Position numbers and translations under genes: made by a program
Origin: Chloroflexota bacterium
GTDB taxonomy: Bacteria; Chloroflexota; Anaerolineae; UBA4142
DNA length: 24,000 bases
Assembly (NCBI GenBank): GCA_016208315.1
Contig: JACQYF010000002.1
Coordinates: 39,820-63,819, forward strand
Direction: 5' to 3'
The notes under the pieces: model-generated
The model's input: the letters and a program-made list of their open reading frames with translations, nothing else
Told to the model about the DNA's origin: nothing
The model's database searches: none
Shown: one piece after another, positions 5,383 through 22,945 of the stretch
How the letters are laid out: each line of letters opens with the position of its first letter
Position numbering within the stretch: position 1 is the first letter of the stretch

Positions 5383-5478
5383 GAAACAATTATCCAATGA
5401 ACCAATGAGCCAAATTGACTCCGCTGTGGGGAACTTGTTTGGCTCATTGGCTCATTGGCATATTGGACAATTGTTTTC
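5383..5478. repeat. Tandem-octamer hairpin, units CCAATGAR / GGCTCATT (family F)
   Basis: The core is a 13-bp perfect stem, 5402-5414 (CCAATGAGCCAAA) with 5438-5450 (TTTGGCTCATTGG). Further pairing extends out to 5383/5478, with one extra 8-nt unit bulged on the right arm. The right arm reads GGCTCATT GGCTCATT GGCATATT GGACAATT. It overlaps the last 10 codons and the stop of nrnA. Confidence 0.85.
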
Positions 5479-9268: not shown

Positions 9269-9583
9269 TCATTCTGTTTTGTTTTGTGGCGCGGTCGTTT
9301 CATGCGCGCGCGGCGGCAGCGTCGCGGTGAACTCGCGCAACCGCGTCAAGTCTTGCTGATCCAGCGGCGTTTCCATCTTCAGGGCGTGTTCGAGACGCCC
9401 GCGACTGCTCAGCGCCTCTTCCCAACACTCGCGCTGGCGGCATAGATACGCGCCGCGTCCGGATTTCTTGCCGGTCGCGTCCGCCTCAACCTTATTGTCC
9501 GCCGTCCGCACGACGCGCACAAGTTCGCGTTTTGCCCGCACCGTGCGACAGGCGATGCACGTGCGCTGGGGAATATGTTTCAT
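9269..9583 (-). CDS. ylxR: YlxR/RnpM-family (DUF448) RNA-binding protein
   Basis: MKHIPQRTCIACRTVRAKRELVRVV...GRGAYLC is the DUF448 signature. It sits in the conserved position between nusA and infB. Confidence 0.85.
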   Translation of the reverse strand: MKHIPQRTCIACRTVRAKRELVRVVRTADNKVEADATGKKSGRGAYLCRQRECWEEALSSRGRLEHALKMETPLDQQDLTRLREFTATLPPRAHETTAPQNKTE

Positions 9584-9659
9584 AGTTGGATAGTTTGCTA
9601 GTTGAATAGTTTCATAGTGTCGTAACTATCAAACTATGAAACTATCCAACTATTCAACT
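9584..9659. repeat. Tandem-octamer hairpin, unit AGTTNNAT (family E)
   Basis: Left arm AGTTGGAT AGTTTGCT AGTTGAAT AGTTTCAT AGT, loop GTCGTA, right arm ACT ATCAAACT ATGAAACT ATCCAACT ATTCAACT. The roughly 35-position stem has about 6 mismatches or wobbles. It occupies the whole spacer from the ylxR start codon (9583) to the nusA stop (9658-9660). Confidence 0.85.
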
Positions 9660-11226
9660 AACCCTCTTCATCGTTCAGAAAGTCGCGCGCCCGGCCGGCT
9701 TTGCGCTTGCGCTTGGCAACCACCTTGCCCAGTTTCTCGTCAAAGACGAGCATTTGGCGCTTGCGGCGGTCTTCCTTGCGCTTTTTCAATTCTTCTGCCG
9801 ATAACTCTTCATCCCCGGCTTCGGCCTCGAACTCTTCCCAGGCCTCTTCAAAGGTTTGCTCGGGTATCTCTTCGACCGGCGCGGCTACGGCGGGCGCCTG
9901 TGGCGGCGCGACGGCTTCCGGTTCGACGACGGTTGGAGCGGCCGCCTCGGGCGCTTTAGTTTCCGCAACCGCTTCCGGCGCGGCGGGCGCTTGGGCGACC
10001 GCTTGGGCCGGTTCCACGGAAGCCGGCTCTTCGGCTGCCACGGGTTGAGGTTCTGGCGCGGCGACGGGCGCGGCTTGCTCGGCAACAACCGGCGCCTCTT
10101 TGCTCACGGCTTCTGCCACAATTTCTTCTGGCGCTACGGCGGCCGGTTCTTCCAATTCGACGGGCGGCGCGGGCACGACCGCTTCTGCGACCTGGGTCTC
10201 GCTCTTGATATCAATGCGCCAGCCCGTTAGCTTGGCCGCGAGCCGCGCGTTCTGGCCCTCTTTGCCGATCGCCAGCGAAAGCTGCCGGTCCTGCACGACG
10301 ACGTTCGCGACCTTGTCGCCGTTCGCGTCCTCGGCCAAACGAACCGAAATGACTTTGGCCGGGCTGAGCGCGTTCGCGACGAAAGCGCCCGGATCGGAAC
10401 TCCATTCGACGACGTCAATTTTCTCACCATTCAATTCGTTGACGATGGCCTGGATGCGCACGCCGCGCTGCCCCACGCACGCGCCCACCGGATCAATGCC
10501 ATCCTGCCGCGCGACGACCGCGATCTTGGAGCGCGATCCGGATTCGCGGGCGATGGCTTTGATCTCGACCAAGCCGTTGAAAATCTCGGGCACTTCGAGT
10601 TCGAACAAGCGCCGCAGCATATTGCGGTGCGTGCGCGATAGAATCACCTGCGGGCCGCGCGACGTCTTGTTGACTTCGCTGATATAGGCGCGAATCTTTT
10701 GGTTGTGCCGGTAACGCTCGGTCGGAATCTGCTCCGAGCGCGGCAGGACCGCTTCGATCTTGCCCAGACTCACCGTGATATTTTGCGCGTCCACGTTGTG
10801 GACGGTCCCGTGAACGATCTCGCCCTCGCGCTCGGCGTACGACGTATACAACGCATCCCGTTCGGCTTCGCGAATCCGCTGGAGGATCACCTGCTTGGCG
10901 GTTTGCGCGGCAATGCGCCCAAAATCGTCCGGGGTCGCTTCGATTTGAATCGTCCCGCCGATTTGGGCCATCGGGTCGAAGGTCTTGGCGTCGGCCAAAG
11001 AAATCTCGGCGCGGCGATCATGCACCTCGTCCACAATGGCTTTGTGGGCGAAAATTTTCACCTTGCCGCTGGTCGGCTCGATGGTGGCCGAAATATCCTG
11101 TCCTCCGCCAAAGTTGCGCTTGTACGCAGAAACGAGGGCTTGCTCGACGGCCTGAATGACGACCTCTTTAGGCAGACTGCGTTCGCTGCAAAGCTGCGTA
11201 ATGGCGACGAGGAAATCGTTCTTCAT
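9658..11226 (-). CDS. nusA: Transcription termination/antitermination factor NusA with a long Ala/Pro/Glu-rich C-terminal extension
   Basis: The N-terminus [37 protein letters not shown] is followed by S1 and KH regions (GEIVHGTV..., [34 protein letters not shown]). ATG at 11226 has GAGGT upstream; the ORF-track start at 11271 adds 15 unsupported codons. Confidence 0.95.
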
Positions 11227-11467: not shown

Positions 11468-12142
11468 ATGTTTGCCAACGTGATTATAGCCGTCGTCAAA
11501 ACGAGCGTCAGGCGACGGATCTGGATACTCCCGCTTTGCGCGCTCGTCGCCCTCTTGGTTGTCGTCGGCGTTCTATACCAACGCGTGGATGCCCAAGCGC
11601 AAATTGACCAAGCGCAACCCGTGGATGCCATCATCGTGCTCGGGTCGGCGGTTCGGCCCAGCGGCCGGGCCAGTCCGTCTCTCAACGCGCGCATACAACA
11701 TGGCATCGCGCTCTACAAGGCGGGTTACGCCTCACACTTGATTCTGACCGGCGGCTTGGGTCAGTATCCGCCGACCGAAGCCGAAGTGATGCGCCGGCTG
11801 GCCGCGGCCGCGGGCGTGCCCGCCGAAGCGATCGTCCTCGAAGACACGTCGCACTCGACGGAGGAACAGCTCACGAATGTCAAGCAGATCATGGGCGCGC
11901 GCGGTTGGCGCAGCGCGTTGATCGTCAGCGATCCCTTCCATCTCTATCGCGCCGACATGATGGCGCGCGACCTGGGCCTCGTGGCCTACGGCTCGCCGGC
12001 GAGCAACAGCCCGACCTACACGGCCCCGCACCTCCGCGTGTGGTACACGACGCGGGAAGCCATCGCCATCCTCTGGTATCAGGCCACGCGCGCGTTCGGT
12101 GAGCCGGCGTGGCTGTACGCGTTGTTGAAAGGTAAAGTGTGA
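11468..12142 (+). CDS. YdcF/ElyC-like DUF218 family protein with an N-terminal membrane anchor
   Basis: AIIVLGSAV...RIQHGIALYKAGYASHLILTGG...TEAEVM...GVPAEAIVLEDTSHSTEEQ...ALIVSDPFHLYRA shows the DUF218 pattern. Confidence 0.8.
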   Translation: MFANVIIAVVKTSVRRRIWILPLCALVALLVVVGVLYQRVDAQAQIDQAQPVDAIIVLGSAVRPSGRASPSLNARIQHGIALYKAGYASHLILTGGLGQYPPTEAEVMRRLAAAAGVPAEAIVLEDTSHSTEEQLTNVKQIMGARGWRSALIVSDPFHLYRADMMARDLGLVAYGSPASNSPTYTAPHLRVWYTTREAIAILWYQATRAFGEPAWLYALLKGKV

Positions 12143-12189
12143 ATTACAGATTACCAATTACTCCTATGGGTAATTAGTAATTGGTAATT
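12142..12189. repeat. Tandem-heptamer hairpin, unit AATTACM / GTAATTR (family B, copy 2)
   Basis: AATTACAGATTACCAATTAC (12142-12161), loop TCCTATGG, then GTAATTAGTAATTGGTAATT (12170-12189). This gives about 20 pairing positions with 2 mismatches and 1 G-T. It starts at the last base of the ydcF-like stop and ends at the SD (GGAGA, 12190-12194) of the next gene. Confidence 0.85.
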
Positions 12190-12198
12190 GGAGATTGT

Positions 12199-13914
12199 AT
12201 GGATCGCGCCATTCCGTTTTCGGCCAGTGAAGAGATCGAACTGTATCAGCGGACGTATTATTCGCTGCTGCGGTCGAGCGGCGAAATTCAGATCAAGTCG
12301 CTGATCGAGACTCACGCGCAGATGGATTCGTCCCTACACATCCACGCGCGCGCCGAGTTTCCCGACATGGCCGCGTTCGTCTATTCCACGCTGCGCCTGC
12401 CCGATTGCATTAAGTCGGTGCGCCTCGTCGTGCTCGGACAGTCGGACGAGGTGTTTCTCAAAGCCGGCTTGACCGACGTGGAGCATTGGCAAGAGGTCAG
12501 CGCGCCCGGGCGACGGCGCAAATACTATTACGACGGCCGCGAAACGCTGGCGGCCTTTATCGCCAGCGCGTCGGACATTGACGATCTCATTCCCATCTTG
12601 ACCGCGTACGAGATCGAATGGAACAAACTTAACGATCTGCTCGAGCGCTCCGGCGCGGCGGCTCGCCTCCGCCAATACTCTGAACGCGGCGCGCCAACGT
12701 CGTCGGGCGAACGCGAGCAACTGGCGAACGACCTGCGGATCAGCTTGAGCGATTGGGCGACTCTGGAGAACATCTGGGGCGCGGCGCTTGCGCCCAATTT
12801 ACTCACCATCGCCGCCGGGCGGAAACACTTTGCGCTGCGGCTGCTCGCCGGGTCGCTGGTGGATTACCACAAGGCCACGCAGCGGTGGTGGAACCATATT
12901 GCGCGCGAGGCGGGCACCGTCATCGGCAATCGGCCGGTCTATTTCGTATCATCGAACACGCACAGTTTCGTCAATTTGGTTTCGGGTTATGCGTTGGAGC
13001 ACGAGCGCGAGTTGATTGACTATATCGGGGAAATGCCACATCAAGACTTGCTGCGGGAGTACCAGGCGATTCAGGCGGAAGAGGTCAAGAGCAGCAAAGA
13101 AAATTTCTTGTACTATGTTTTGAAAAAATATTGCGCCGATCCGGAGAATGTCGCCGCCGGGCGCGAGAAAGAGCGCCGAGAAACCGAAGTGGGCATCACC
13201 TACGTCAAGAGCGATCGCTATTTGGACGTGGATGCCCAGGTCATCGAATTGAACAAACTGATCCCGGAACGGCTCGATCCGCGCCTGCCGCACGAGCACG
13301 TCAGGCGTTTGCAGAATAGCGACGCCGTGATTTTCAATATTGACTATCCCTTGGGCTTGGCGGCTTACCAGATTCTTTCTGAGGTTACGCAGAACGTAGA
13401 CCAGATCAAGGGCATTTACTCGCTCGGCAAAGCGGCGACGTTGAACGGTCGCATCGGCGATGTGATCATTCCGAATGTCGTGTACGACGAGCATTCGCAG
13501 AATACGTACTTGTTCAACAACTGCTTTACGGCACGCGACATTGCGCCGTACCTCGTCTACGGTTCGGTGCTCGACAACCAAAAGGCCATCAGCGTCAAAG
13601 GGACGTTCTTGCAAAATCGCCGGTTCATGGAGCTATTTTATCGCGAGGGTTATACCGATATCGAGATGGAGGCCGGGCCGTATCTCTCGGCCATTTACGA
13701 GATCAGTTACCCGCGACGCTATCCGGTCAACGAAATCGTGCGCTTGTACCATGTGGATTTGGATGCGGGGTTTCTCCACTATGCGACGGATACGCCGTAC
13801 AGCAAGGGGAAAAATCTCGGGACGGTCCACCCATCCTACTACGGCATGGACCCCACCTATGCGACCGCGCTCGCGGTGTTGCAGCGGATTTTGAAACGGG
13901 AGACGCGTGGGTGA
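12199..13914 (+). CDS. Uncharacterised 571-aa protein; the C-terminal part resembles the PNP/UDP-1 (nucleoside phosphorylase / AMP nucleosidase) fold
   Basis: A long ORF with GGAGA 4 nt upstream of the ATG at 12199. C-terminal motif order AVIFNIDYPLGLAAYQIL ... GDVIIPNVVYDEHS ... TDIEMEAGPY parallels AMP nucleosidase and PNP-family catalytic domains (the E-M-E motif). I do not recognise the N-terminal ~340 aa. Confidence 0.55.
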   Translation: MDRAIPFSASEEIELYQRTYYSLLRSSGEIQIKSLIETHAQMDSSLHIHARAEFPDMAAFVYSTLRLPDCIKSVRLVVLGQSDEVFLKAGLTDVEHWQEVSAPGRRRKYYYDGRETLAAFIASASDIDDLIPILTAYEIEWNKLNDLLERSGAAARLRQYSERGAPTSSGEREQLANDLRISLSDWATLENIWGAALAPNLLTIAAGRKHFALRLLAGSLVDYHKATQRWWNHIAREAGTVIGNRPVYFVSSNTHSFVNLVSGYALEHERELIDYIGEMPHQDLLREYQAIQAEEVKSSKENFLYYVLKKYCADPENVAAGREKERRETEVGITYVKSDRYLDVDAQVIELNKLIPERLDPRLPHEHVRRLQNSDAVIFNIDYPLGLAAYQILSEVTQNVDQIKGIYSLGKAATLNGRIGDVIIPNVVYDEHSQNTYLFNNCFTARDIAPYLVYGSVLDNQKAISVKGTFLQNRRFMELFYREGYTDIEMEAGPYLSAIYEISYPRRYPVNEIVRLYHVDLDAGFLHYATDTPYSKGKNLGTVHPSYYGMDPTYATALAVLQRILKRETRG

Positions 13915-13969
13915 GTATGGGGGTGTGGGAGTATGGGAGCGCCCCCCACACTCCCACACTCCCATACTC
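13913..13969. repeat. Tandem-octamer hairpin, unit GGGAGTAT/GGGGGTGT (family A, copy 2)
   Basis: 13913-13939 pairs with 13943-13969 over 27 positions (24 Watson-Crick, 1 G-T, 2 mismatches) with loop CGC. It overlaps the TGA of the upstream gene and sits between convergent genes (stops at 13912-13914 and 13979-13981). Confidence 0.88.
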
Positions 13970-13978
13970 ATCACTCCC

Positions 13979-14881
13979 TCACCTGATGTTGATGCTCCCC
14001 ACCCCGCCGTCCACCTCGATGTCAATCTTGTTCGTGGCGCTCGCATAATCCGCGCTCTGATAGATCTCACCCGACTTGGGAAAGCGCGCCTGATCTACAT
14101 TGATGCCGCCCAGTCCAGCGTCCACACGCACCCGCGCGGCGACGCCTGGCGGAATGGTGACGGTCGCCGAGCCAACGCCGCCGTTGAGCCGCATGGTCAC
14201 GCTGCCGGTTTTCGGCGTGGTCACGGCCAGCGAACCGATGCCGGTGTCCACGGAAAGCGCGGTAACGTTGAGCGCGGAAAGGTCCAGCATCGCGCGCCCG
14301 ATGCCGCCGTTGACGTTCAGCACGATGGGGACCGCCGGATTCAGTCCCAACTCCCAACGGCTCACGCTGCCGCCGCCCAAGATAAAGTTGACGCCTTCTG
14401 CTTTTAGCCCCAACCGCCCTTCGTTTCCAACCACGTTGTACGATTTGACGACCCGCGCGCCTTGGGCGTGAGCGAACGTCCCCTTCATTAGGTCGCCAGA
14501 ATCGGAACCGAGCGAATTCACCGTGGTATTGGAAAAGCCAATGTCGAGATTCACTCGGGCGCTCTGGATGTCTCCGAGGGGCTGGGCCAATTGCTCGGTG
14601 GTCGCCGGAGCGGTCGCCAGAAATCCGCCGCCCTGGGCATACGCAAGCCAGAGCACGCCGCCGATCAGCGCGACCCACAGCACGACCACGAGGAGCGCGC
14701 CCAGCGCGGATCGCCGTCCGAAAAGAATCTCCAGGCCCATCAAAATGAAAATCGTCGGCCAGAAGCGATAGGCGATTTCCCAGAACGAAAGCGGCAGCAG
14801 CCCCATGTTGGCGAGCAGGAAAAGCACGCCGATGGTGATCAGGATGAGCGGCCCAATCACGCCCGGACGTCGGTGTTCCAT
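13979..14881 (-). CDS. Membrane-anchored LiaF-like / toastrack (DUF2154/DUF4097-type) protein
   Basis: The ATG at 14881 is preceded by AAGGAGA. The N-terminal TM region (GPLILITIGVLFLLANMGLL) resembles LiaF-type TM domains. The C-terminus has repetitive beta-strand-like segments (VNGGIGRAMLDLS, VDTGIGSLAVT, LNGGVGSATVTIP, VDAGLGGINV, VDGGVGSINI). It lies 14 nt downstream of the mutL stop. Confidence 0.7.
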   Translation of the reverse strand: MEHRRPGVIGPLILITIGVLFLLANMGLLPLSFWEIAYRFWPTIFILMGLEILFGRRSALGALLVVVLWVALIGGVLWLAYAQGGGFLATAPATTEQLAQPLGDIQSARVNLDIGFSNTTVNSLGSDSGDLMKGTFAHAQGARVVKSYNVVGNEGRLGLKAEGVNFILGGGSVSRWELGLNPAVPIVLNVNGGIGRAMLDLSALNVTALSVDTGIGSLAVTTPKTGSVTMRLNGGVGSATVTIPPGVAARVRVDAGLGGINVDQARFPKSGEIYQSADYASATNKIDIEVDGGVGSINIR

Positions 14882-14895
14882 GTTGTCTCCTTTGA

Positions 14896-16647
14896 CTATT
14901 TCCGCCCGAACTCGCGTTCGAGTTGCGCGACGTTCAATTGGATGACGGTCGGGCGGCCGTGCGGGCAAGTACGCGGCGCAGTCGTCTGCTCCAAGCGACG
15001 GACCAACTCGCGCATCTCTTCGAGCGCCAAGACCTGGCCGCCTTTTACCGCGATGCTTTTGCACACGCTCGAAATCAGGCGCGCCTCTGACGTCTTTTCC
15101 AACGGCGCTTCTCCCTGCTCGATCTCATCCAGAATCGCGATGAGCGTTACACTCGGTTCGCCCCTTTTCAGCAGACCGGGCACCGCGCGCAGCAACATCG
15201 TTTGATTGCCGAACGGCTCGATCTTGAAGCCGACCGACGCCAGGGCCTCGCGATTGGCTTGCAGCATGGCGAATTGCGCCAGCGTAAGTTGGATCGGCGC
15301 GGGATCGAGCAGCTCTTGAATCGCAACCTGCGCGCCGGCGCGCTCCGCGGTCAGTTGCTCGTACAAGACGCGCTCGTGCGCGGCGTGTTGGTCAATGAGA
15401 TACAACCCATCGGGCCCTTCGGCGATGATGTAGGTGGAGGCGATTTGGCCGAGGACGCGGAGCATGGGGAGTTTGGGAGGTTGGGAGTATGGGAGTTGGG
15501 AGGTTGGAGGTTGGAAGTTGGAAGTTGGAATGGGGTGGTGGAGGTTGATGGCGAGTTGTGTTTCGCTTGGCGTGGGCGGGAAATCTTGGCGCGGGAAAGG
15601 CGCGCCGACGGTGATGGACGGAATCGGCGCGTTGGCGGTGAGCGCCGCGCGGACCGCGCGCTGCACGGCGTTGAATACCATGCTGGTGTCGCGAAAGCGG
15701 ACCTCGCTCTTTGTCGGATGAACGTTGACATCCACCATATCCGGCGGCACAATCACATCCAACGCGACAATCGGCGCGCGCCCCACCATCAGCGACGTGT
15801 GGTATGCTTCGATGACCGCGTGTTGGAGCGTGCGATCCTGAATCCAGCGATGGTTGACAAAAAAGAGCATGTACTTGCGGTTGCCGCGGTTGACGTTGGG
15901 AGGGGAGACAAAGCCGGTGACTTGGAGGTTAGAAGGTGGAAGTTGGAGGTTGGAATCACTATCCGATTTCCAATTTCCAACTTCCAACATCTGTTTGGCC
16001 GTTTCAATCCCAAACACCTTCACGAGCACGTCGAACATCTTGCCCGTGCCCGGCGATTGGAACGTGAGGCGGTCTTCGTTGACGAGGGAAAAACGCAGGT
16101 GCGGATATGCGAGGGCGTAGGCATTGAGCAGGTCGCCAATATGTCCGGCTTCGGTCGCGGGCATTTTCAGAAATTTGAGGCGCGCGGGGACGTGCCGGAA
16201 CAAATCCTCGACGGTGATGATTGTGCCCGCGGGCGCGCCTTGCGCGTGGTGCTCGGTGATCTTGCTGCCGTCCACCCGAATCTCGGAACCCGATTCTTCG
16301 TCGCGGTCGCGCGTAATCAGCGTGACGCGCGCAACCGCGGCAATCGAGGGCAGCGCCTCGCCGCGAAAGCCGAGCGTCTGGAGCCGAAACAAATCGTCGG
16401 CGGATTCGAGCTTGCTCGTCGCGTGGCGCGCGAACGCGGTCTCGACTTCGGCGGCGGGAATGCCGCAGCCGTTGTCCGCCACGCGGATGAGGCGCTGCCC
16501 GCCGCCGCGCACCTCCACTTTGATCTCAGTCGCGCCCGCGTCAATCGAGTTCTCGATCAGTTCCTTGACGACCGACGCCGGCCGCTCGATCACTTCGCCC
16601 GCGGCGATCTTGGCGGCCAGGTCGTCTGACAGAATATGGATTGCCAT
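14896..16647 (-). CDS. mutL: DNA mismatch repair protein MutL, carrying two internal periodic-repeat segments
   Basis: GHKL ATPase motifs (AAGEVIERPASVVKELIENSIDAGAT, DNGCGI, TLGFRGEALPSI), the transducer region (FVNHRWIQDR) and the C-terminal dimerisation/endonuclease region (LIDQHAAHERVLYE, CPHGRPT) are present. Start ATG at 16647 (MAIHILSDD). The 18 upstream codons of the ORF track come from repeat element C1. Confidence 0.93.
   Translation of the reverse strand: MAIHILSDDLAAKIAAGEVIERPASVVKELIENSIDAGATEIKVEVRGGGQRLIRVADNGCGIPAAEVETAFARHATSKLESADDLFRLQTLGFRGEALPSIAAVARVTLITRDRDEESGSEIRVDGSKITEHHAQGAPAGTIITVEDLFRHVPARLKFLKMPATEAGHIGDLLNAYALAYPHLRFSLVNEDRLTFQSPGTGKMFDVLVKVFGIETAKQMLEVGNWKSDSDSNLQLPPSNLQVTGFVSPPNVNRGNRKYMLFFVNHRWIQDRTLQHAVIEAYHTSLMVGRAPIVALDVIVPPDMVDVNVHPTKSEVRFRDTSMVFNAVQRAVRAALTANAPIPSITVGAPFPRQDFPPTPSETQLAINLHHPIPTSNFQPPTSQLPYSQPPKLPMLRVLGQIASTYIIAEGPDGLYLIDQHAAHERVLYEQLTAERAGAQVAIQELLDPAPIQLTLAQFAMLQANREALASVGFKIEPFGNQTMLLRAVPGLLKRGEPSVTLIAILDEIEQGEAPLEKTSEARLISSVCKSIAVKGGQVLALEEMRELVRRLEQTTAPRTCPHGRPTVIQLNVAQLEREFGRK
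15466..15548. repeat. One-armed heptamer array GTTGGAR/GGGAGTT (family D, copy 1) inside the mutL linker; G-rich on the + strand
   Basis: The + strand reads GGGGAGTTTGGGAGGTTGGGAGTATGGGAGTTGGGAGGTTGGAGGTTGGAAGTTGGAAGTTGGAATGG... It contains exact tandem copies GGTTGGA x2 and AGTTGGA x2 (15502-15529). It also contains the family-A unit GGGAGTAT. mutL translates it as INLHHPIPTSNFQPPTSQLPYSQPPKLP. Confidence 0.85.
15922..15992. repeat. Heptamer hairpin (family D, copy 2) inside the mutL N-terminal domain
   Basis: Left arm TTGGAGG TTAGAAG GTGGAAG TTGGAGG TTGGAA, 12-nt loop (15956-15967), right arm TTCCAAT TTCCAAC TTCCAAC. Positions 15931-15955 pair with 15968-15992 (21 Watson-Crick, 2 G-T, 2 mismatches). 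mutL reads it in frame as EVGNWKSDSDSNLQLPPSNLQ. Confidence 0.88.
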
Positions 16648-16654
16648 CACTGCT

Positions 16655-16663
16655 ATTGTATCA
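16655..16663 (-). promoter_or_regulatory. Possible extended -10 promoter giving a leaderless mutL mRNA
   Basis: The minus strand reads TGATACAAT (16663-16655), then 7 nt, then the mutL ATG (16647). There is no SD upstream of the ATG. The -35 position falls inside repeat element C1. Confidence 0.3.
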
Positions 16664-16664
16664 T

Positions 16665-16782
16665 AAAATTCAAAATTCGTAATTCGTAATTCGTAATTCA
16701 AACCTCTTGGCCTGGGATAGGAATTACGAATTACGAATTACGAATTACGAATTACGAATTACGAATTACGAATTTTGATTTT
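16665..16782. repeat. Large asymmetric heptamer hairpin, unit GTAATTC / GAATTAC (family C, copy 1)
   Basis: Left arm AAAATTC x2 plus GTAATTC x3 (16665-16699), 21-nt loop, right arm GAATTAC x7 plus GAATTTT GATTTT (16721-16782). That is 5 units against 9. It occupies most of the divergent mutL/dehydratase intergenic region. Confidence 0.92.
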
Positions 16783-16800
16783 GCTTTGACATCGTATAGA

Positions 16801-17784
16801 ATGCGTTCGATGATTACGATCCGGGAGATTCTCGAGGCGCAGCGACGGATTCGCCCGCACGTTTTTCGCACGCCGCTGCGCTATTCGTTTTTGCTGAGCG
16901 AACGTATTGGCGCGTCGGTCTTTTTAAAGCTGGAGAACTGGCAGGTGACCGGCTCGTTCAAGCCGCGCGGCGCGCTCAATATGATGGCAATGTTGGACGA
17001 TGCGGAACGCGCGCGCGGCGTGGTGACCGCCAGCGCGGGCAATCACGCGCTCGGCGTCGGCTATGCAGCGCGGCTTCTCAACATCTCGCCGGCGACGATC
17101 TTTGTGCCGCGCACTGCGCCGCGCGCCAAACTGGACAAGCTGCGCGAATTCCCGGTTGACGTGCGAACGGTCGGCGAAACCTACGACGACGCCCATCACG
17201 CGGCCGAAGCGCACCGGCGCGCGACCGGCGCGACGTTCGTGAACGCGTACGACGACCCGCGCACCGTCGCGGGGCAGGCGACGATTGGCTTGGAGATTCT
17301 GGAGGATTTGCCGGACGTGGACGCGATCCTCGTTCCGGTCGGCGGGGGCGGGATGATTGCCGGGATTGCGATTGCGGCCAAAGCGCTCGCGCCCGCGGTC
17401 AAGATCATCGCCGTGCAGCCCGTGGCCTCGCCCGCACTGCGCGATTCCTTGCGCGACGGCAAGTGCTACGAGGAGTATCCCGCTGCGCCGACCATCTGCG
17501 ACGGGCTGGCAGGCGGCATCGGCAAAATCTGTTTCGAGGTCGCGCAAAGGTTGGTGGACGATGTCGTGGTCGTCGAAGAAGACGAAACCAAAACGGCAAT
17601 TCGCGCGCTCGCCGAAACTGAGCAGTTGATCGCGGAGGGGTCGGGCGCGGTAGGCGTTGCGGCGCTGCTTTCGCAGAAGGCGGATTTGGCGGGCAAACTC
17701 GTGGCGGTCGTGCTCAGCGGCGGCAACATTGATCTGGCGCTGCTCGCGCAAATCCTAAATCAGAAATCAGAAATCCTAAATTGA
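16801..17784 (+). CDS. PLP-dependent threonine/serine dehydratase (threonine ammonia-lyase-like, no ACT domain)
   Basis: FLKLENWQVTGSFKPRGALN contains the PLP lysine motif, with ASAGNHALGVGYAA and a GGGGMIAG glycine loop. The start is ambiguous among ATG 16801, ATG 16810 and the TTG 16786 of the ORF track. The last 11 codons and the stop lie in a heptamer array. Confidence 0.85.
   Translation: MRSMITIREILEAQRRIRPHVFRTPLRYSFLLSERIGASVFLKLENWQVTGSFKPRGALNMMAMLDDAERARGVVTASAGNHALGVGYAARLLNISPATIFVPRTAPRAKLDKLREFPVDVRTVGETYDDAHHAAEAHRRATGATFVNAYDDPRTVAGQATIGLEILEDLPDVDAILVPVGGGGMIAGIAIAAKALAPAVKIIAVQPVASPALRDSLRDGKCYEEYPAAPTICDGLAGGIGKICFEVAQRLVDDVVVVEEDETKTAIRALAETEQLIAEGSGAVGVAALLSQKADLAGKLVAVVLSGGNIDLALLAQILNQKSEILN
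17750..17784. repeat. One-armed heptamer array AAATCCT AAATCAG AAATCAG AAATCCT AAATTGA (family H)
   Basis: Five direct 7-nt units with no complementary arm nearby. They encode QILNQKSEILN plus the TGA of the dehydratase. They also contain the overlapping TTG (17781) used as the eamA-family start. Confidence 0.8.
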
Positions 17785-18689
17785 GCACGCGCCCCTATCT
17801 CGTTCTCGCCCTCGGCATCGTCGCCGTCTCGTCGTCCGCGTTCCTGATCACGTTTGCGCGTCAGGAGGGCGTACCTGCCGTCGCGATTGCCGCGCTCCGG
17901 CTTTCGTTCGCCTCCCTCGTCCTCGCGCCGATCGCCGTCACGCGCGCGCGGGACGAATGGCGGCGGCTTGCGCCGCGCGACCTGGCGTTGGCGATTGCTT
18001 CGGGTTTTCTGCTCGCGCTTCATTTCGCCTTTTGGATCAGCTCGCTCGACTATACTTCTGTGATGAGTTCGATCGTCCTGGTCAGCACGAACCCATTTTT
18101 CGTCGCGCTAGCGTCGGTCTGGCTCCTGCGCGAGTCGTTACATCGCGGAACGGTCGTCGGGATTCTCATTGCAGTCGCCGGGGGCGCGCTGGTCGCGTTG
18201 ACGGATTTGGGCCAGGGCGGGACCGAGTCCCTGCAAGGCGATGCGCTGGCGGTCGCGGGCGCGGTGACCGTGTCCGGGTATTTGGTCATCGGACGCGTCT
18301 TGCGAAGGAAACTGTCGCTCGTCGGCTACATCGGCTTGGTCTATTCGACCGCGGCGATCGTGTTGCTCGTGTTGGCGTGGGTGATGAACGCGCGGCTCAC
18401 CGGTTATTCGACCAAGAGCTATGCGCTGATCGTCCTCCTCGCCGCAGGCCCCCAATTAATCGGCCATTCGGCGTATAATTGGGCGCTGAAATATGTCTCG
18501 GCCACCTTCGTCACGATCACGGTGCTCGCCGAACCGATTGGCGCGACGCTGCTCGCGATTCCCATTCTCGCTCAGGTGCCTCCGCCGATCAAACTCATCG
18601 GCGGCGCGCTGATTCTGGTGGGGATTTACTTTGCGGCGCGACAGGAAGCGGTAAGCAGTGAACAGTCAACAGTCAACAGTGGACAGTGA
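17781..18689 (+). CDS. EamA/DMT-family transporter
   Basis: A protein of about 10 predicted hydrophobic helices with two EamA-like halves (LALGIVAVSSSAFLI..., ...LAAGPQLIGHSAYNWALKYVSATFVTI). TTG at 17781 is the only start candidate and overlaps the upstream TGA (TTGA). The C-terminal SSEQSTVNSGQ plus stop is encoded by repeat element G. Confidence 0.8.
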   Translation: MSTRPYLVLALGIVAVSSSAFLITFARQEGVPAVAIAALRLSFASLVLAPIAVTRARDEWRRLAPRDLALAIASGFLLALHFAFWISSLDYTSVMSSIVLVSTNPFFVALASVWLLRESLHRGTVVGILIAVAGGALVALTDLGQGGTESLQGDALAVAGAVTVSGYLVIGRVLRRKLSLVGYIGLVYSTAAIVLLVLAWVMNARLTGYSTKSYALIVLLAAGPQLIGHSAYNWALKYVSATFVTITVLAEPIGATLLAIPILAQVPPPIKLIGGALILVGIYFAARQEAVSSEQSTVNSGQ

Positions 18690-18758
18690 ACAGTGAACAG
18701 TTAACGGCGAATACGGACCAGCGAATACTGTTTACTGTACACTGTTGACTGTTGACTG
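18656..18758. repeat. Asymmetric heptamer hairpin, unit CAGTSAA / CTGTTGA (family G)
   Basis: Left arm CAGTGAA CAGTCAA CAGTCAA CAGTGGA CAGTGAA CAGTGAA CAGTTAA (18656-18704). The spacer carries GCGAATA twice. Right arm CTGTTTA CTGTACA CTGTTGA CTGTTGA CTG (18728-18758). That is 7 units against 4. Best register is 18663-18694 with 18727-18758 (2 non-Watson-Crick positions). Confidence 0.9.
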
Positions 18759-19496: not shown

Positions 19497-20621
19497 TTGA
19501 TCTATGGTCTGCAGGGCGCGGTGCTGCCGCAGTTGAGAGATGACCTCGCTCTGAGCTATACGGAGGTCGGCTTACTGTTTACCGTGCCGGGACTGATCGG
19601 AATCGTCGGCGAGCCGTTCATCGGTCTCCTGGCCGACACGCGCCACCGCCGCGCGCTGGTCGTAGGCGGCATCACGGCGACTGCGTTCGGGCTGCTGCTC
19701 ACGGGCATCGGGCAATCGTTAGCGGTCATGCTGGTCGCGTTCAGCGTCTTGTACGTCGCGAGCGGCGCATACGTAACGCTCGCCCAAGCCACGCTGATTG
19801 ATCGCAACCCGACGCGGGCCGAACAGACGATGGCGCGTTGGACGCTGTTGGGCAGCATCGGCGTGACCGTCGCGCCGCTAGTCGTCACCGCGTTGTTTTT
19901 CTTGGGCTATGGCTGGCGCGGTTTGTATTTGGGTCTGGCGGGCGTCGCCGGAATTTACACCGCGCTATTGCTGCGCCAGCGTTTCGACGCGCACGCCGGC
20001 GCGGACAAACATATCGCCCCGCGCGAAATGTTCGCGAACCTGATCGCCGCGCTGAAAACGCGCGAGCTGCTGCGCTGGGTTGCGCTTACGGAACTTGCCG
20101 ACCTGATGCTCGACAAGTTGCTCGAAGTGACCGGGCTGTACTTTGCCGACGTGGTCGGCGTCGGCGTGGCCGCGGCCAGCGGCGCGATTGCGGTCCTGAC
20201 GATTGCCGGCCTTGTCGGCGATGCGCTGCTCGTGCCCGCGCTCGAACGCGTCAGTGGGCTGCGAATCCTGCGCGTGACCGCAGTGGTCGTGCTCGTCGGC
20301 TATGTCGCATTCTTGCTCGTGCCGGTCGTCTGGCTCAAGTTCGCTTTGATCGGCGCGATCGGCTTTTGTACGGCGGGGTGGTACGCCGTCCTGGCCGGCA
20401 GAACGTACGCGGTGTTGCCGAAGCAATCAGGTCTGATCGTGTCGGTTTCGGCGTTGGGCAACGTCTCGAGCGTCCTTGTGCCCTTCGTCATTGGTCGAAT
20501 TGCGGACACGTTTGGATTAGAGTGGGCGATGTGGCTGCTGGCGCTCGGACCAGTCGCGCTGATCGTCGGATTGCCGCGGGAAGGGAATGCGGAAAGGTGC
20601 GAAAACATCTCACCGTTCTAA
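19497..20621 (+). CDS. MFS transporter; the true start is probably upstream of the listed TTG
   Basis: The MFS loop motif GLLADTRHRR follows TM2, and multiple hydrophobic helices are present. The hydrophobic segment expected to be TM1 (AALFLFALYGVELLDELIYG) is encoded in frame at 19446-19505, upstream of the TTG at 19497. No ATG, GTG or TTG occurs between 19410 and 19496. Confidence 0.75.
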   Translation: MIYGLQGAVLPQLRDDLALSYTEVGLLFTVPGLIGIVGEPFIGLLADTRHRRALVVGGITATAFGLLLTGIGQSLAVMLVAFSVLYVASGAYVTLAQATLIDRNPTRAEQTMARWTLLGSIGVTVAPLVVTALFFLGYGWRGLYLGLAGVAGIYTALLLRQRFDAHAGADKHIAPREMFANLIAALKTRELLRWVALTELADLMLDKLLEVTGLYFADVVGVGVAAASGAIAVLTIAGLVGDALLVPALERVSGLRILRVTAVVVLVGYVAFLLVPVVWLKFALIGAIGFCTAGWYAVLAGRTYAVLPKQSGLIVSVSALGNVSSVLVPFVIGRIADTFGLEWAMWLLALGPVALIVGLPREGNAERCENISPF

Positions 20622-22945
20622 CGCTATACATCCTCATCGCACTCGTCCTGTCGTGGCCGCTGGCGCTGAATTTCGCGTCGGCGATTCCGGGCGTGGAGGG
20701 CGACGCGGCGAGTTTCGTGTGGGCGATGGGCTGGGCCAAGACCGCGCTTGCGGATCTGCGCGTCAACCCATTCCACACCGACTATGTTTTCTATCCGCTC
20801 GGCGGCGCGACGCAACTGCTCTGGGCGACGTCGCTTGTCGGCTTGGTCTCGATTCCGCTGCAATACGTCTTCGGCTTGATCGTCACCTACAACCTTTTGT
20901 ACCTCGCGGCGACGGTGCTGACGGCGTATGGGACGTTTCTACTTGCGGAATTCGTAATTCGTAATTCGGAATTCAGAATTATGAATTATGAATTCGATCA
21001 AACGCCACTGCCACCGCTTGCCACCGTTCTCCTGACGCAGTTCATAACGCAGAACCGCAAACTCGCCACCCGACACTCGTCACTTGGCCCTTTTGTTGCG
21101 GGACTCGTATTTGCGTTTGCGCCGCTGCGGCAGGGGTATGGGCTGGCGTTCTTCAATCTGTTCCATACCGAGCTGATTCCATTCTACTTGCTCTTTTTGC
21201 TCCGCGCCGCGCATGAGAAATCGTGGCGGTTGGCGATTCTGGCAGGCGTGTTTCTCGGTTTGAATACGTACATTGATTTCCAGATCGCCGCGTTTTTGAT
21301 CTTGTTGACGGGCGTGTTCGTGGCTAAAGACCCGAAGGGTTTACCAAAAACCCGTCGGGTCTGGGCGACCACGGCGCTTACCTCGCTGATGATCGCCATC
21401 CCCATCCTCCTCGCCGTTGCGAACGATTTTGCGGTTGAAGGCGGCAACTACATTCGCGTGTACAAGCTCGATTATTCTGCGGCGCGCTCTTACGATCTGC
21501 TGTCGTTCTTTGTGCCCAATGCGCGGAGCACGCTCTATGCCGATTCGCCGCTCAAGATTGCGAACGTCAACGCGGCGGTCCAAGCCCAGGATGAAAGTGC
21601 GCTCTCACCCGACCGCCAACCGTTTGTCGGCTATATCGTGCTCGCGCTGGCGGCGTTCGCCGTTGCCCGGCGGTGGCGGCAAGCGCGGTTCTGGCTTGTC
21701 GTGGCTGGCTTGTTCGCGCTTTTCAGTTTGGGCCCGTCGCTCCACATTTTCGGACGCGAGACTGGAATTCCGCTCCCGTTTCTCGCGCTGCACGAAATCC
21801 CCATCGTCAACCACATTCGCATTCCGATGCGGTATGGCATCATCGTGCCGCTCGCGCTGGCGATGCTGGTGGCGATGGCAATTGACAACTTGCAACGGAC
21901 AATTGACAAGTGGAGGTTGGAAGTTAGAAGTTGGAGGTTGGAAGCTGGACGTTGGAAATGGCGTGACGTGCTGCGGATTCGCTTGGCGAGTTTGGCGCTG
22001 GCGCTCGTTCCCGTTGGCATCTTGGTCGAATTTGCGGTGCTGCCGTATCCGGCGCAGCCGGTGACGATTCCGCGCGTGTATGCGGCGATTGCGCGCGAGC
22101 CGGGCGATTTTACTATCTTGGAGATTCCCACCTTCCATTGGCGCGGCGCGGCGGCCGCAGAACTCTATCAGCCGATCCATGGCAAGCGCATCTTGCGCGC
22201 CTACACCAATCGCATCGCGCCGGGACTCGCGGAGTATTTCGGCTATCGCGGCACGCCGATTGTCGTCCGGTCGCTCCGCGTGCTGGAGGGCGCGGAGCAG
22301 GGCGAGCTGGCGCCGGACGACATTGCCGAGGACAAGCGCGTCCGCGATCAAGTCGTTCAATTCTTCAATCTGCGCTACGCGCTCCTCCACCGTTCGTACC
22401 TCAAGCCGAACGAGGTCGGCGCGATTGACCGCTACCTGCGCGACGTTCTCGGCGCGCGGCTGATTGACGACGACGGTCAAGTCATCGCGTACCAAATTCC
22501 GCCGACGACGAGCGTTCCGGAGGTCATCGCGATTGATCTGCGCGAGAACATTGGACAGATGTACGCGGGGCGCGGCTGGCAGTTCGAATACCCGCCCGCG
22601 AACTGGAACGACGAATTCAATTTCGTGTGGGCGCGCGGCGCGCGGTCGGAGATCTATTTTGTCGCGGGCGACGCGGCGGAACGCGTGGTGACGCTGCACG
22701 CGCGCGCCGAATCGCCGCAGCGCGTGAATGTCTATCTGAACGATCAGCCGGTCGGCGAAATCGCTCTGACGACCGAATGGCGAGACCACGAGATCGCGCT
22801 GCCCGCGCGCGCGGTTGTATCGGGCATGAACCGGTTGACGTTGGATTACGGAGGCGAGTTCGAGGAGACGGTCGCGGTAACGATCATCCAGATTCGGCAA
22901 ATTGACATTCGGCGAGGAAATCATGGAACCCAAACCAGTCGTTGA
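20597..22945 (+). CDS. Large polytopic membrane protein, putative GT-C-type glycosyltransferase (YfhO/ArnT-like), with a C-terminal soluble domain and three internal repeat/hairpin segments
   Basis: A continuous 782-codon frame begins at the in-frame GTG at 20597 (VRKHLTVLTLYILIALVLSWPL), with GGGAAGGGA upstream. It has many hydrophobic helices and a beta-rich C-terminus. The upstream 253 codons of the 1035-aa ORF overlap the MFS gene in another frame and look spurious. The function call is from general architecture only. Confidence 0.7.
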   Translation: MRKHLTVLTLYILIALVLSWPLALNFASAIPGVEGDAASFVWAMGWAKTALADLRVNPFHTDYVFYPLGGATQLLWATSLVGLVSIPLQYVFGLIVTYNLLYLAATVLTAYGTFLLAEFVIRNSEFRIMNYEFDQTPLPPLATVLLTQFITQNRKLATRHSSLGPFVAGLVFAFAPLRQGYGLAFFNLFHTELIPFYLLFLLRAAHEKSWRLAILAGVFLGLNTYIDFQIAAFLILLTGVFVAKDPKGLPKTRRVWATTALTSLMIAIPILLAVANDFAVEGGNYIRVYKLDYSAARSYDLLSFFVPNARSTLYADSPLKIANVNAAVQAQDESALSPDRQPFVGYIVLALAAFAVARRWRQARFWLVVAGLFALFSLGPSLHIFGRETGIPLPFLALHEIPIVNHIRIPMRYGIIVPLALAMLVAMAIDNLQRTIDKWRLEVRSWRLEAGRWKWRDVLRIRLASLALALVPVGILVEFAVLPYPAQPVTIPRVYAAIAREPGDFTILEIPTFHWRGAAAAELYQPIHGKRILRAYTNRIAPGLAEYFGYRGTPIVVRSLRVLEGAEQGELAPDDIAEDKRVRDQVVQFFNLRYALLHRSYLKPNEVGAIDRYLRDVLGARLIDDDGQVIAYQIPPTTSVPEVIAIDLRENIGQMYAGRGWQFEYPPANWNDEFNFVWARGARSEIYFVAGDAAERVVTLHARAESPQRVNVYLNDQPVGEIALTTEWRDHEIALPARAVVSGMNRLTLDYGGEFEETVAVTIIQIRQIDIRRGNHGTQTSR
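20948..20995. repeat. 48-nt heptamer hairpin (family C, copy 2) exactly in frame inside the membrane-protein CDS
   Basis: Sequence reads GAATTCG TAATTCG TAATTCG GAATTCA GAATTAT GAATTAT GAATTC. Positions 20948-20967 pair with 20976-20995 over 20 bp (18 Watson-Crick plus 2 G-T on the sense strand) with an 8-nt loop. It starts at codon position 1 and encodes 16 aa, EFVIRNSEFRIMNYEF. Confidence 0.9.
21328..21362. repeat. Non-periodic 15-bp hairpin inside the membrane-protein CDS
   Basis: AGACCCGAAGGGTTT (21328-21342) / AAACCCGTCGGGTCT (21348-21362) pair at 14 of 15 positions with a 5-nt loop. It is translated as KDPKGLPKTRRV in a predicted loop between hydrophobic segments. Confidence 0.75.
21910..21958. 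repeat. One-armed heptamer array TTGGARG (family D, copy 3) inside the membrane-protein CDS
   Basis: Sequence reads GTGGAGG TTGGAAG TTAGAAG TTGGAGG TTGGAAG CTGGACG TTGGAAA. It is translated as KWRLEVRSWRLEAGRWKW. It is near-identical in unit content to 15922-15955 in mutL. It is preceded by a 10-nt direct repeat of CAATTGACAA (21880-21889 and 21900-21909). Confidence 0.85.

Follow-up and report, generated by a model that had tools for sequence, protein, structure and literature searches.

A hairpin built of heptanucleotide repeats lies in frame inside mutL, the gene of a mismatch-repair protein, in a stretch of 24,000 nucleotides of a Chloroflexota bacterium of the class Anaerolineae (contig JACQYF010000002.1); this whole stretch is referred to here as the window. 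Sequence comparisons and a structural model suggest that the hairpin, whose repeat unit is free of stop codons, is probably a passenger of repeat DNA tolerated in a permissive surface loop of MutL. Judged by its distribution among relatives, the insert appears to be old and common to the whole clade. We favour this reading because the GC content at third codon positions (GC3) of the insert is foreign to the gene, because the insert varies fast within species, because it is decayed, replaced or absent in relatives that have an intact mutL, and because its unit contains no stop. The gene, the hairpin and the insert are located as follows:

14896-16647, - strand: mutL coding sequence, 583 aa from MAIHILSDD (open reading frame (ORF), Pfam, PDB match and fold match)
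15931-15955: hairpin arm, the 3' arm of the mRNA, AGAAGGTGGAAGTTGGAGGTTGGAA, codons D231-S239 (direct read and repeat finder, pair I20)
15956-15967: hairpin loop of 12 nt, codons about 227-231 (repeat finder and folding)
15968-15992: hairpin arm, the 5' arm of the mRNA, TTCCAATTTCCAACTTCCAACATCT, codons Q219-K227, including the native Q-M-L-E-V (direct read and repeat finder)
15922-15955, + strand: heptamer array TTGGAAG x4.9 (Tandem Repeats Finder)
15962-15987, + strand: heptamer array TCCAATT x3.7, of the complement family of the TTGGAAG array (Tandem Repeats Finder)
15916-15984, - strand: variable-loop segment E222-T244, 23 aa here against a baseline of 12 aa
15943-15975, - strand: 11 extra codons N225-Q235 as placed by HMMER (gap against 9n2k, 7p8v and 5akb), the exact placement within the loop being arbitrary

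An earlier note, made from the letters of the window alone, had described a stem of 25 positions with 21 Watson-Crick pairs, 2 G-T pairs, 2 mismatches and a 12-nt loop, and a pair-by-pair recount gave the identical result. The repeat finder scores the two arms, of 25 nt each, as 84% complementary. Both are period-7 arrays, with 3-5 imperfect units per arm and 74-89% matches (Tandem Repeats Finder). Folded as DNA, the + strand reaches -17.4 kcal/mol (z = -4.6) and, folded as RNA, the mRNA strand reaches -29.0 kcal/mol (z = -4.4); 0 of 200 dinucleotide shuffles were as stable in either case. The G-T pairs do lie on the + strand, antisense to mutL, as the note had it, and correspond to C-A mismatches in the mRNA, the fold of which contains a 2-nt internal loop. 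For the 69-nt segment of the window, the antisense strand folds at -30.5 kcal/mol vs -20.8 kcal/mol for the mRNA strand. The 5' arm of the mRNA is read as ATG TTG GAA GTT GGA AAT TGG, i.e. (A)TGTTGG AAGTTGG AAATTGG. The unit family TTGGARG / CYTCCAA is free of stops in all six frames, and this is what makes read-through possible; the in-frame translation given earlier, EVGNWKSDSDSNLQLPPSNLQVT followed by GFVSPP...FFVNHRW, is correct. No terminator-like site (a G+C-rich stem with a T-run) was found in 14800-16900, and a scan with Rfam 15 returned no family at its gathering score, the generic miRNA-like hairpin matches scoring 20-27 bits against cut-offs of 58-95.

The length of the segment was counted as the residues between the L of QML and the G of GF. 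Outgroups were provided by 86 MutL loci, among the matches listed in scans of genomes and metagenome contigs, with identities of at most 53%. The segment is 12 aa long in 42 of these 86 loci and spans 9-52 aa; it is also 12 aa long in Bacillus subtilis and Escherichia coli. HMMER opens a gap of 11 residues in 9n2k, 7p8v and 5akb against the query evgNWKSDSDSNLQlppsnlqvtgfv. The insertion proposed in the earlier note is thus a real, in-frame insertion in the N-terminal (transducer) domain, and only its size needs correction, since the measured excess is 11 aa and not 12-15 aa. The note would have given up the insertion if alignment had revealed no excess over close orthologues that lack periodic DNA. 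The alignment does reveal an excess: because the close orthologue P0016/L162, which has no periodic hairpin in 13.7 kb, stands at the 12-aa baseline, that outcome was not obtained.

Mapping of the extra residues onto a predicted structure, also proposed in the note, places them, at low confidence, in a coil that connects two strands of the transducer subdomain. The AlphaFold2 model was built on an alignment of 58 sequences and has a mean predicted local distance difference test (pLDDT) score of 75; its N-terminal domain superposes on the B. subtilis (9n2k) and E. coli (1b63) structures with template modelling (TM) scores of 0.85-0.87. Strands are predicted at residues 221-223 and 242-247, with a coil at 224-241 between them and pLDDT <50 at 227-238, and by alignment the insertion point is the H231/G232 turn of E. 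coli MutL. According to this model the insert lengthens a beta-hairpin of the transducer subdomain at its tip and interrupts no secondary-structure element, and the 11 added residues are predicted to be disordered. The codon composition of the insert is foreign to mutL, with a GC of 0.45 and a GC3 of 0.39 vs 0.62 and 0.78 in the remainder of the gene.

The MutL product is complete and of the endonuclease type, with the Pfam domains HATPase_c_3, DNA_mis_repair and MutL_C (PF13589/PF02518, PF01119, PF08676). It matches the N-terminal domain of B. subtilis MutL (9n2k) with E = 6e-74 and E. coli MutL with about 1e-63. Endonuclease MutL proteins are defined by the motifs DQHA(X)2E(X)4E and CPHGRP in their C-terminal domain. 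The translation holds DQHAAHE (DQHAAHERVLYE), CPHGRP and a clamp-like QELLDP motif, and both DQHAAHERVLYE and CPHGRP are invariant across the 58-sequence alignment. The rest of MutL, its ATPase and endonuclease motifs included, is intact.

The 120 closest MutL proteins, from Anaerolineae/Chloroflexota metagenome-assembled genomes, are 56-87% identical over their full length. They were grouped by average-linkage clustering and are well conserved except at the insert site and in the linker. The site exceeds 12 aa in 117 of the 120 (15-74 aa) and is exactly 12 aa long in P0016, P0020 and P0100, all of which have an intact mutL. Within the insert peptides, paired motifs are found that are translations of each other's reverse complement, namely GNWKLE/PTSNLQ, SSFKFQV/NLKPET and SPKSQV/GDVRPAT. 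By degenerate back-translation, palindrome compatibility is significant in 39 of the 120 insert peptides, where about 2 would be expected by chance; this count is approximate, since the test allows no bulges, misses gapped hairpins such as that of L168, and gave one false positive (the 12-aa P0016).

The DNA of ten relatives (L161-L170) was also compared. The order PALP-EamA-HAD, mutL, LiaF-like is kept in those with long enough contigs, and the MutL loop site is occupied as follows:

L161: heptamer hairpin, -37.2 kcal/mol, z = -7.1
L166: heptamer hairpin, -32.6 kcal/mol, z = -7.4
L164: heptamer hairpin, -62.2 kcal/mol, z = -4.6
L163: heptamer hairpin, -29.3 kcal/mol, z = -4.3
L169: weak hairpin, -26.6 kcal/mol, z = -2.2
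L168: unrelated palindrome (GTCATTGCGAGCGAAGCGAAGCAATC...), -48.6 kcal/mol, z = -5.4
L170: insert, hairpin not significant, -15.0 kcal/mol, z = 0.3
L167: insert, hairpin not significant, -25.8 kcal/mol, z = 0.0
L162: 12-aa baseline, insert-free, -5.3 kcal/mol, z = 1.3

The tenth, L165, belongs to the same species as L166 and shares its hairpin, with a nonsense change in addition. The hairpin has thus decayed, been replaced or is absent in L169, L170, L167, L168 and L162, with mutL intact, and no periodic hairpin of any kind was found in L162 across its 13.7 kb. The repeat unit changes from lineage to lineage: it is GAAGTTG/GAAATTG in the window, L166 and L164, GGAAGTG in L161, GTTTCAA in L163 and AGGTCRC in L169. 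Within each hairpin the unit is matched in both arms even though the lineages differ, which indicates that the arms evolve together. In every lineage compared the array begins at the conserved E/Q-V codons, and the insert-free L162 reads ATG TTG GAG GTG where the array of the window begins. This coincidence of the first unit with the native M-L-E-V codons suggests, without proving it, that the array grew from a native TTGGARG as its seed or was recruited to one.

Two side observations concern the same loop. In L168 (L168:6664-6783) it holds another palindrome, GTCATTGCGAGCGAAGCGAAGCAATC...GATTGCTTCG...CTCGCAATGA, translated VIASEAKQSP...LAMT, which appears to be nested in remnants of heptamer arrays; palindromes of this type are also present in P0044, P0049, P0064, P0072, P0077, P0087 and P0094. 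Distant Anaerolineae, at about 50% identity, carry independent hairpins (L027:3652-3708 and L082:3664-3759), and the stem of that in L027 is perfect over 15 bp (AGACCTGACAGGTCT gag AGACCTGTCAGGTCT). These two hairpins fit a permissive landing site as well as they fit a function.

A history of the element as a tolerated passenger may be outlined from these comparisons. The hairpin occupies what is predicted to be the tip of the beta-hairpin between the strands ...QMLEV and QVTGFV. Its array would have been seeded on, or recruited to, the native TTG-GAR-GT (L-E-V) codons in the ancestor of the clade. Slippage of units within each arm would then account for turnover, and correction of one arm by the other, e.g. 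by template switching at the quasi-palindrome, would keep the arms matched. The element would persist because extra length is tolerated in the loop and because a deletion is viable only if it is precise and in frame. A dedicated role in mismatch repair would not be required. The earlier note had called notable an insertion into a structured domain of a repair protein by an element whose stability depends on mismatch repair. Such a special link finds no support: the length of the loop is naturally variable (9-52 aa among the matches listed), the insert appears old and common to the clade, its length is stable within species and a membrane-protein gene of the window behaves alike. Moreover, the insertion loops that bacterial MutS recognises measure about 1-4 nt, and slippage loops of 7 nt should largely escape repair, which weakens the premise that the stability of the hairpin depends on MutL.

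Variation within species was assessed in ten species-level clusters (90% identity). In these, 18 of 421 insert columns vary, compared with 27 of 3187 columns elsewhere in the N-terminal domain (Fisher p = 1e-6), so that the insert varies five-fold faster than the remaining domain. No variation in length at the site was found in the ten clusters, which comprise about 46 full-length members. In L165, a change of AGA to TGA divides mutL into two ORFs, and the break falls exactly within the hairpin. When L165:2851-2955 is set against L166:3664-3768, 5 of the 14 differences over 4.7 kb are found inside the 100-nt hairpin. Such clustering suggests a local hot spot of mutation, with a natural mutL-null allele, but an assembly chimera would account for it equally well. 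A chimeric assembly is possible because the coverage of the L165 contig is low (4.7x) and because a second hairpin of the TTGGAAG family lies 700 nt upstream (L165:2045-2165), in the PALP-mutL intergenic region; at the corresponding place L166 has a gap of 100 N (L166:2884-2983).

Heptamer hairpins fragment metagenome assemblies and thereby give rise to gene calls for a truncated MutL beginning with MLFFVNHRW. Such calls were considered as candidate frameshift alleles and rejected, P0142 having a contig end 25 nt upstream and P0160 and P0161 lying on contigs of 1.0-1.2 kb; among the truncated calls examined, only that of L165 is a real split, caused by the nonsense substitution. The contig of L171 ends at the mutL palindrome (L171:1-25).

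The mutL hairpin is one of about ten periodic hairpins in the window, each with its own unit of 7 or 8 nt, and nearly every intergenic region holds one. Gene positions around them were taken from an approximate ORF map. The following were located:

1445-1497, 5383-5477, 9583-9660, 12142-12196, 13910-13972, 16667-16767, 18663-18758: intergenic hairpins
19802-22945, + strand: large membrane-protein gene, stop-to-stop ORF read through two periodic arrays
20948-20995, + strand: membrane-gene array 1, AEFVIRNSEFRIMNYEF
21879-21957, + strand: membrane-gene array 2, KWRLEVRSWRLEAGRWKW

The seven intergenic hairpins are AT-rich (GC 0.29-0.62 vs 60.5% GC for the genome), and six of them lie at gene 3' ends. 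The unit families GTAATTC, TTGGARG and GGGAGTAT recur in the window, and 7 of the 10 intergenic units carry a stop on one strand. In array 1 of the membrane-protein gene, the unit that would give an in-frame TAA reads GGAATTC instead of GTAATTC. In the L161 and L164 orthologues of this gene both positions are likewise occupied, by inserts of other sequence, and the orthologue in the distant L167 has none. Since in-frame inserts are thus also found in a membrane-protein gene, their retention is general and not specific to mutL; comparison of the sequences indicates that in-frame repeat inserts kept at fixed sites, with fast turnover of their sequence, are a general property of the lineage. Among the neighbouring genes, an EamA-like gene (17781-18689) ends within the first arm (18663-18694) of a CAGTGAA hairpin, so that its C-terminal tail is encoded by the repeat. 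ORFs extended by hairpins run the risk of mis-annotated starts and ends. A literature search for heptamer hairpins in Chloroflexi/Anaerolineae found no description, which is weak evidence as most subscription journals lay outside its coverage; the population of heptamer hairpins, very dense in this lineage, is apparently undescribed.

Several observations weigh against a mere passenger. Pairing has been kept through changes of the unit in several lineages, which selection for structure would also explain. In 6 of 7 lineages the more stable fold is that of the antisense strand and not that of the mRNA (e.g. -57.0 vs -32.6 kcal/mol in L166), a difference that is not statistically significant with seven lineages; the mismatches in these segments are G-T in the antisense and C-A in the sense direction. 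In the membrane-protein gene, on the + strand, the in-gene hairpins are more stable in the sense direction. In addition, the relatives sampled keep the mutL hairpin but are without most of the intergenic hairpins of the window, although breaks or N-masking of assemblies at hairpins temper this contrast. The hairpin could be a selected cis-acting structure that tunes the amount of MutL, by a translational pause after the ATPase domain, as an RNase III site, as an antisense element or as a replication/cruciform signal. Pairing retained in both arms through unit turnover, occupation of the site across the clade, the consistently higher antisense stability and the independent hairpins at the same loop in L027 and L082 all speak for such a structure. 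It is nevertheless unlikely: the hairpin is not significant in L170 and L167, weak in L169, replaced in L168 and absent in P0016, P0020 and P0100; no more than 39 of the 120 insert peptides are compatible with a palindrome; the C-A mismatches weaken the mRNA form; neither a terminator-like site nor an Rfam family at threshold was found; and inserts recur alike in the membrane-protein gene in L161 and L164. A bolder version, in which the hairpin would be selected as a cis-acting device coupling mismatch repair to repeat instability, acting as a hot spot or brake in mutL and producing mutator subpopulations in filamentous Chloroflexota, seems to us more doubtful still; were it true, the nonsense allele of L165 may be an example of MutL being lowered or intermittently abolished. 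Somewhat likelier than such a coupling device is that the periodic hairpins are repeats of a class so far undescribed, which arise in place from native heptamers and whose arms co-evolve.

Mutators could also arise by phase variation. If slippage by 7 nt shifted the frame of mutL, the hairpin would be a contingency locus producing reversible mutator subpopulations, and the loss of repair would raise the rate of reversion. The arrays are tandem and lie inside an ORF, and their 7-nt unit is not a multiple of 3. The split of L165 mutL falls exactly in the hairpin, with 5 of the 14 differences there, and repeats or mobile elements that switch repair genes are known, such as a prophage between mutS and mutL of Streptococcus pyogenes, an element in Vibrio mutS and a homopolymer tract in mutY of Helicobacter pylori (PMC8875331). 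Those elements resemble the mutL hairpin in being unstable or mobile DNA in a repair gene, but they demonstrably toggle the gene, whereas the hairpin is in frame and neither length polymorphism nor switching was seen. Heptanucleotide tracts known to be phase-variable carry, when in the expressed or switching state, some 8 to 38 perfect copies (PMC2651432), compared with 3.7-4.9 imperfect units per arm here. A long, near-perfect tract and length polymorphism with on and off frames are hence both missing, the ten species-level clusters being without any change in length. The L165 change is a point nonsense mutation, not a 7-nt slip, on a 4.7x contig that is possibly chimeric, and like inserts occur in an unrelated membrane-protein gene. 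We regard a contingency locus as very unlikely.

It is even less probable that the loop is a selected extension of the transducer domain, with the DNA palindrome being incidental. Almost every member of the clade does have a lengthened loop, and other Anaerolineae have a modestly lengthened one (16-37 aa among the matches listed). Its peptide, however, is hypervariable between species in both sequence and length (15-74 aa), evolves at five times the rate of the remaining domain, has a foreign codon composition and is predicted to be disordered, and adaptation at the protein level would leave the dyad symmetry and the 7-nt periodicity of the DNA unexplained. As to an artefact of assembly or sequencing at a repeat, breaks and N-filled gaps do occur in assemblies at these hairpins, but more than 100 independent assemblies (NCBI, JGI, ENA and Logan) contain the in-frame insert, with conserved synteny, and the chance of an artefact is negligible. 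Of all these explanations, a passenger tolerated in the loop remains the one that we prefer.

As such a passenger, the mutL hairpin is a variant of an already known phenomenon, i.e. repeat or palindromic DNA tolerated in frame. By analogy, its closest functional counterpart is provided by the Rickettsia palindromic elements (RPEs), which likewise form hairpins and are found in the reading frame of housekeeping genes, where the protein fold allows it (PMC10969869). Both are hairpin-forming repeats that are in frame, translated, located at a site tolerated by the fold and kept across related species (PMC10969869). For the mutL insert, the hairpin-forming capacity of the DNA and its frame relative to insert-free orthologues are observed, and the tolerance of the loop is predicted. 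RPEs differ in being dispersed copies of about 150 bp that belong to ten families, each element with a conserved encoded peptide (PMC10969869). Here, 60-180 bp of tandem 7-nt units have no consensus beyond the unit, are specific to locus and lineage and reside in a Chloroflexota host; we did not find the dispersed family, with its conserved peptide and a consensus conserved over about 100-150 bp, that defines RPEs. PARCELs are coding palindromes that encode a defined amphipathic motif of 25 residues in proteins of unknown function and are spread by horizontal transfer (PMC2996958). They share with the mutL hairpin dyad-symmetric coding repeats tolerated inside ORFs, but the latter has no conserved peptide motif and its host is a core repair enzyme (PMC2996958).

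In their tandem 7-nt units and mostly intergenic location, the arrays of the window resemble the heptanucleotide repeats of cyanobacteria and Beggiatoaceae (TAACTGA), which are abundant, mostly intergenic and the commonest class of long-unit repeats in many genomes (PMC4679880, citing Mrazek 2007). The published descriptions that were found are of direct arrays, whereas here an array and its inverted complement form a long hairpin, in some cases in frame (PMC4679880). The cyanobacterial STRR units are CCCCAGT, TTGGTCA and CAACAGT; STRR sequences are likewise dispersed intergenic heptamer arrays, with a different host (here Anaerolineae/Chloroflexota) and different units.

The main value of the finding lies in the permissiveness of the MutL loop and in the pointer to a dense population of heptamer hairpins in this lineage. 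At the position of E. coli H231/G232, the transducer loop accommodates from 0 to at least 60 extra residues of essentially arbitrary sequence in more than 100 orthologues, which amounts to a natural experiment on tolerance. The intergenic repeat hairpins of this Anaerolineae lineage also enter genes if their unit is free of stops, which bears on the evolution of proteins. For annotation, it matters that peptides such as NWKLE, PTSNLQ and VIASEAKQSP, as well as false N-terminal extensions, stem from repeat DNA, and for metagenome assembly that contigs break at heptamer hairpins. If one of the minority readings were true, a new way to modulate the mutation rate would be at hand.

Two further repeats touch the mutL gene itself. 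The mechanically derived mutL ORF overruns the real start at 16647 by 18 codons (16648-16701), up to a TTG at 16701, through an unrelated intergenic GTAATTC hairpin. Within the gene, the linker contains an array with a single arm:

15467-15528, - strand: one-armed GGGAGTT x8 array whose in-frame translation is PTSNFQPPTSQLPYSQPPKLP, located in the linker of MutL, which is predicted to be disordered (Tandem Repeats Finder and ORF)

This array forms no fold (-1.1 kcal/mol), the model has pLDDT <50 at residues 348-389, and the unit belongs to the same family as that of the hairpin in the N-terminal domain.

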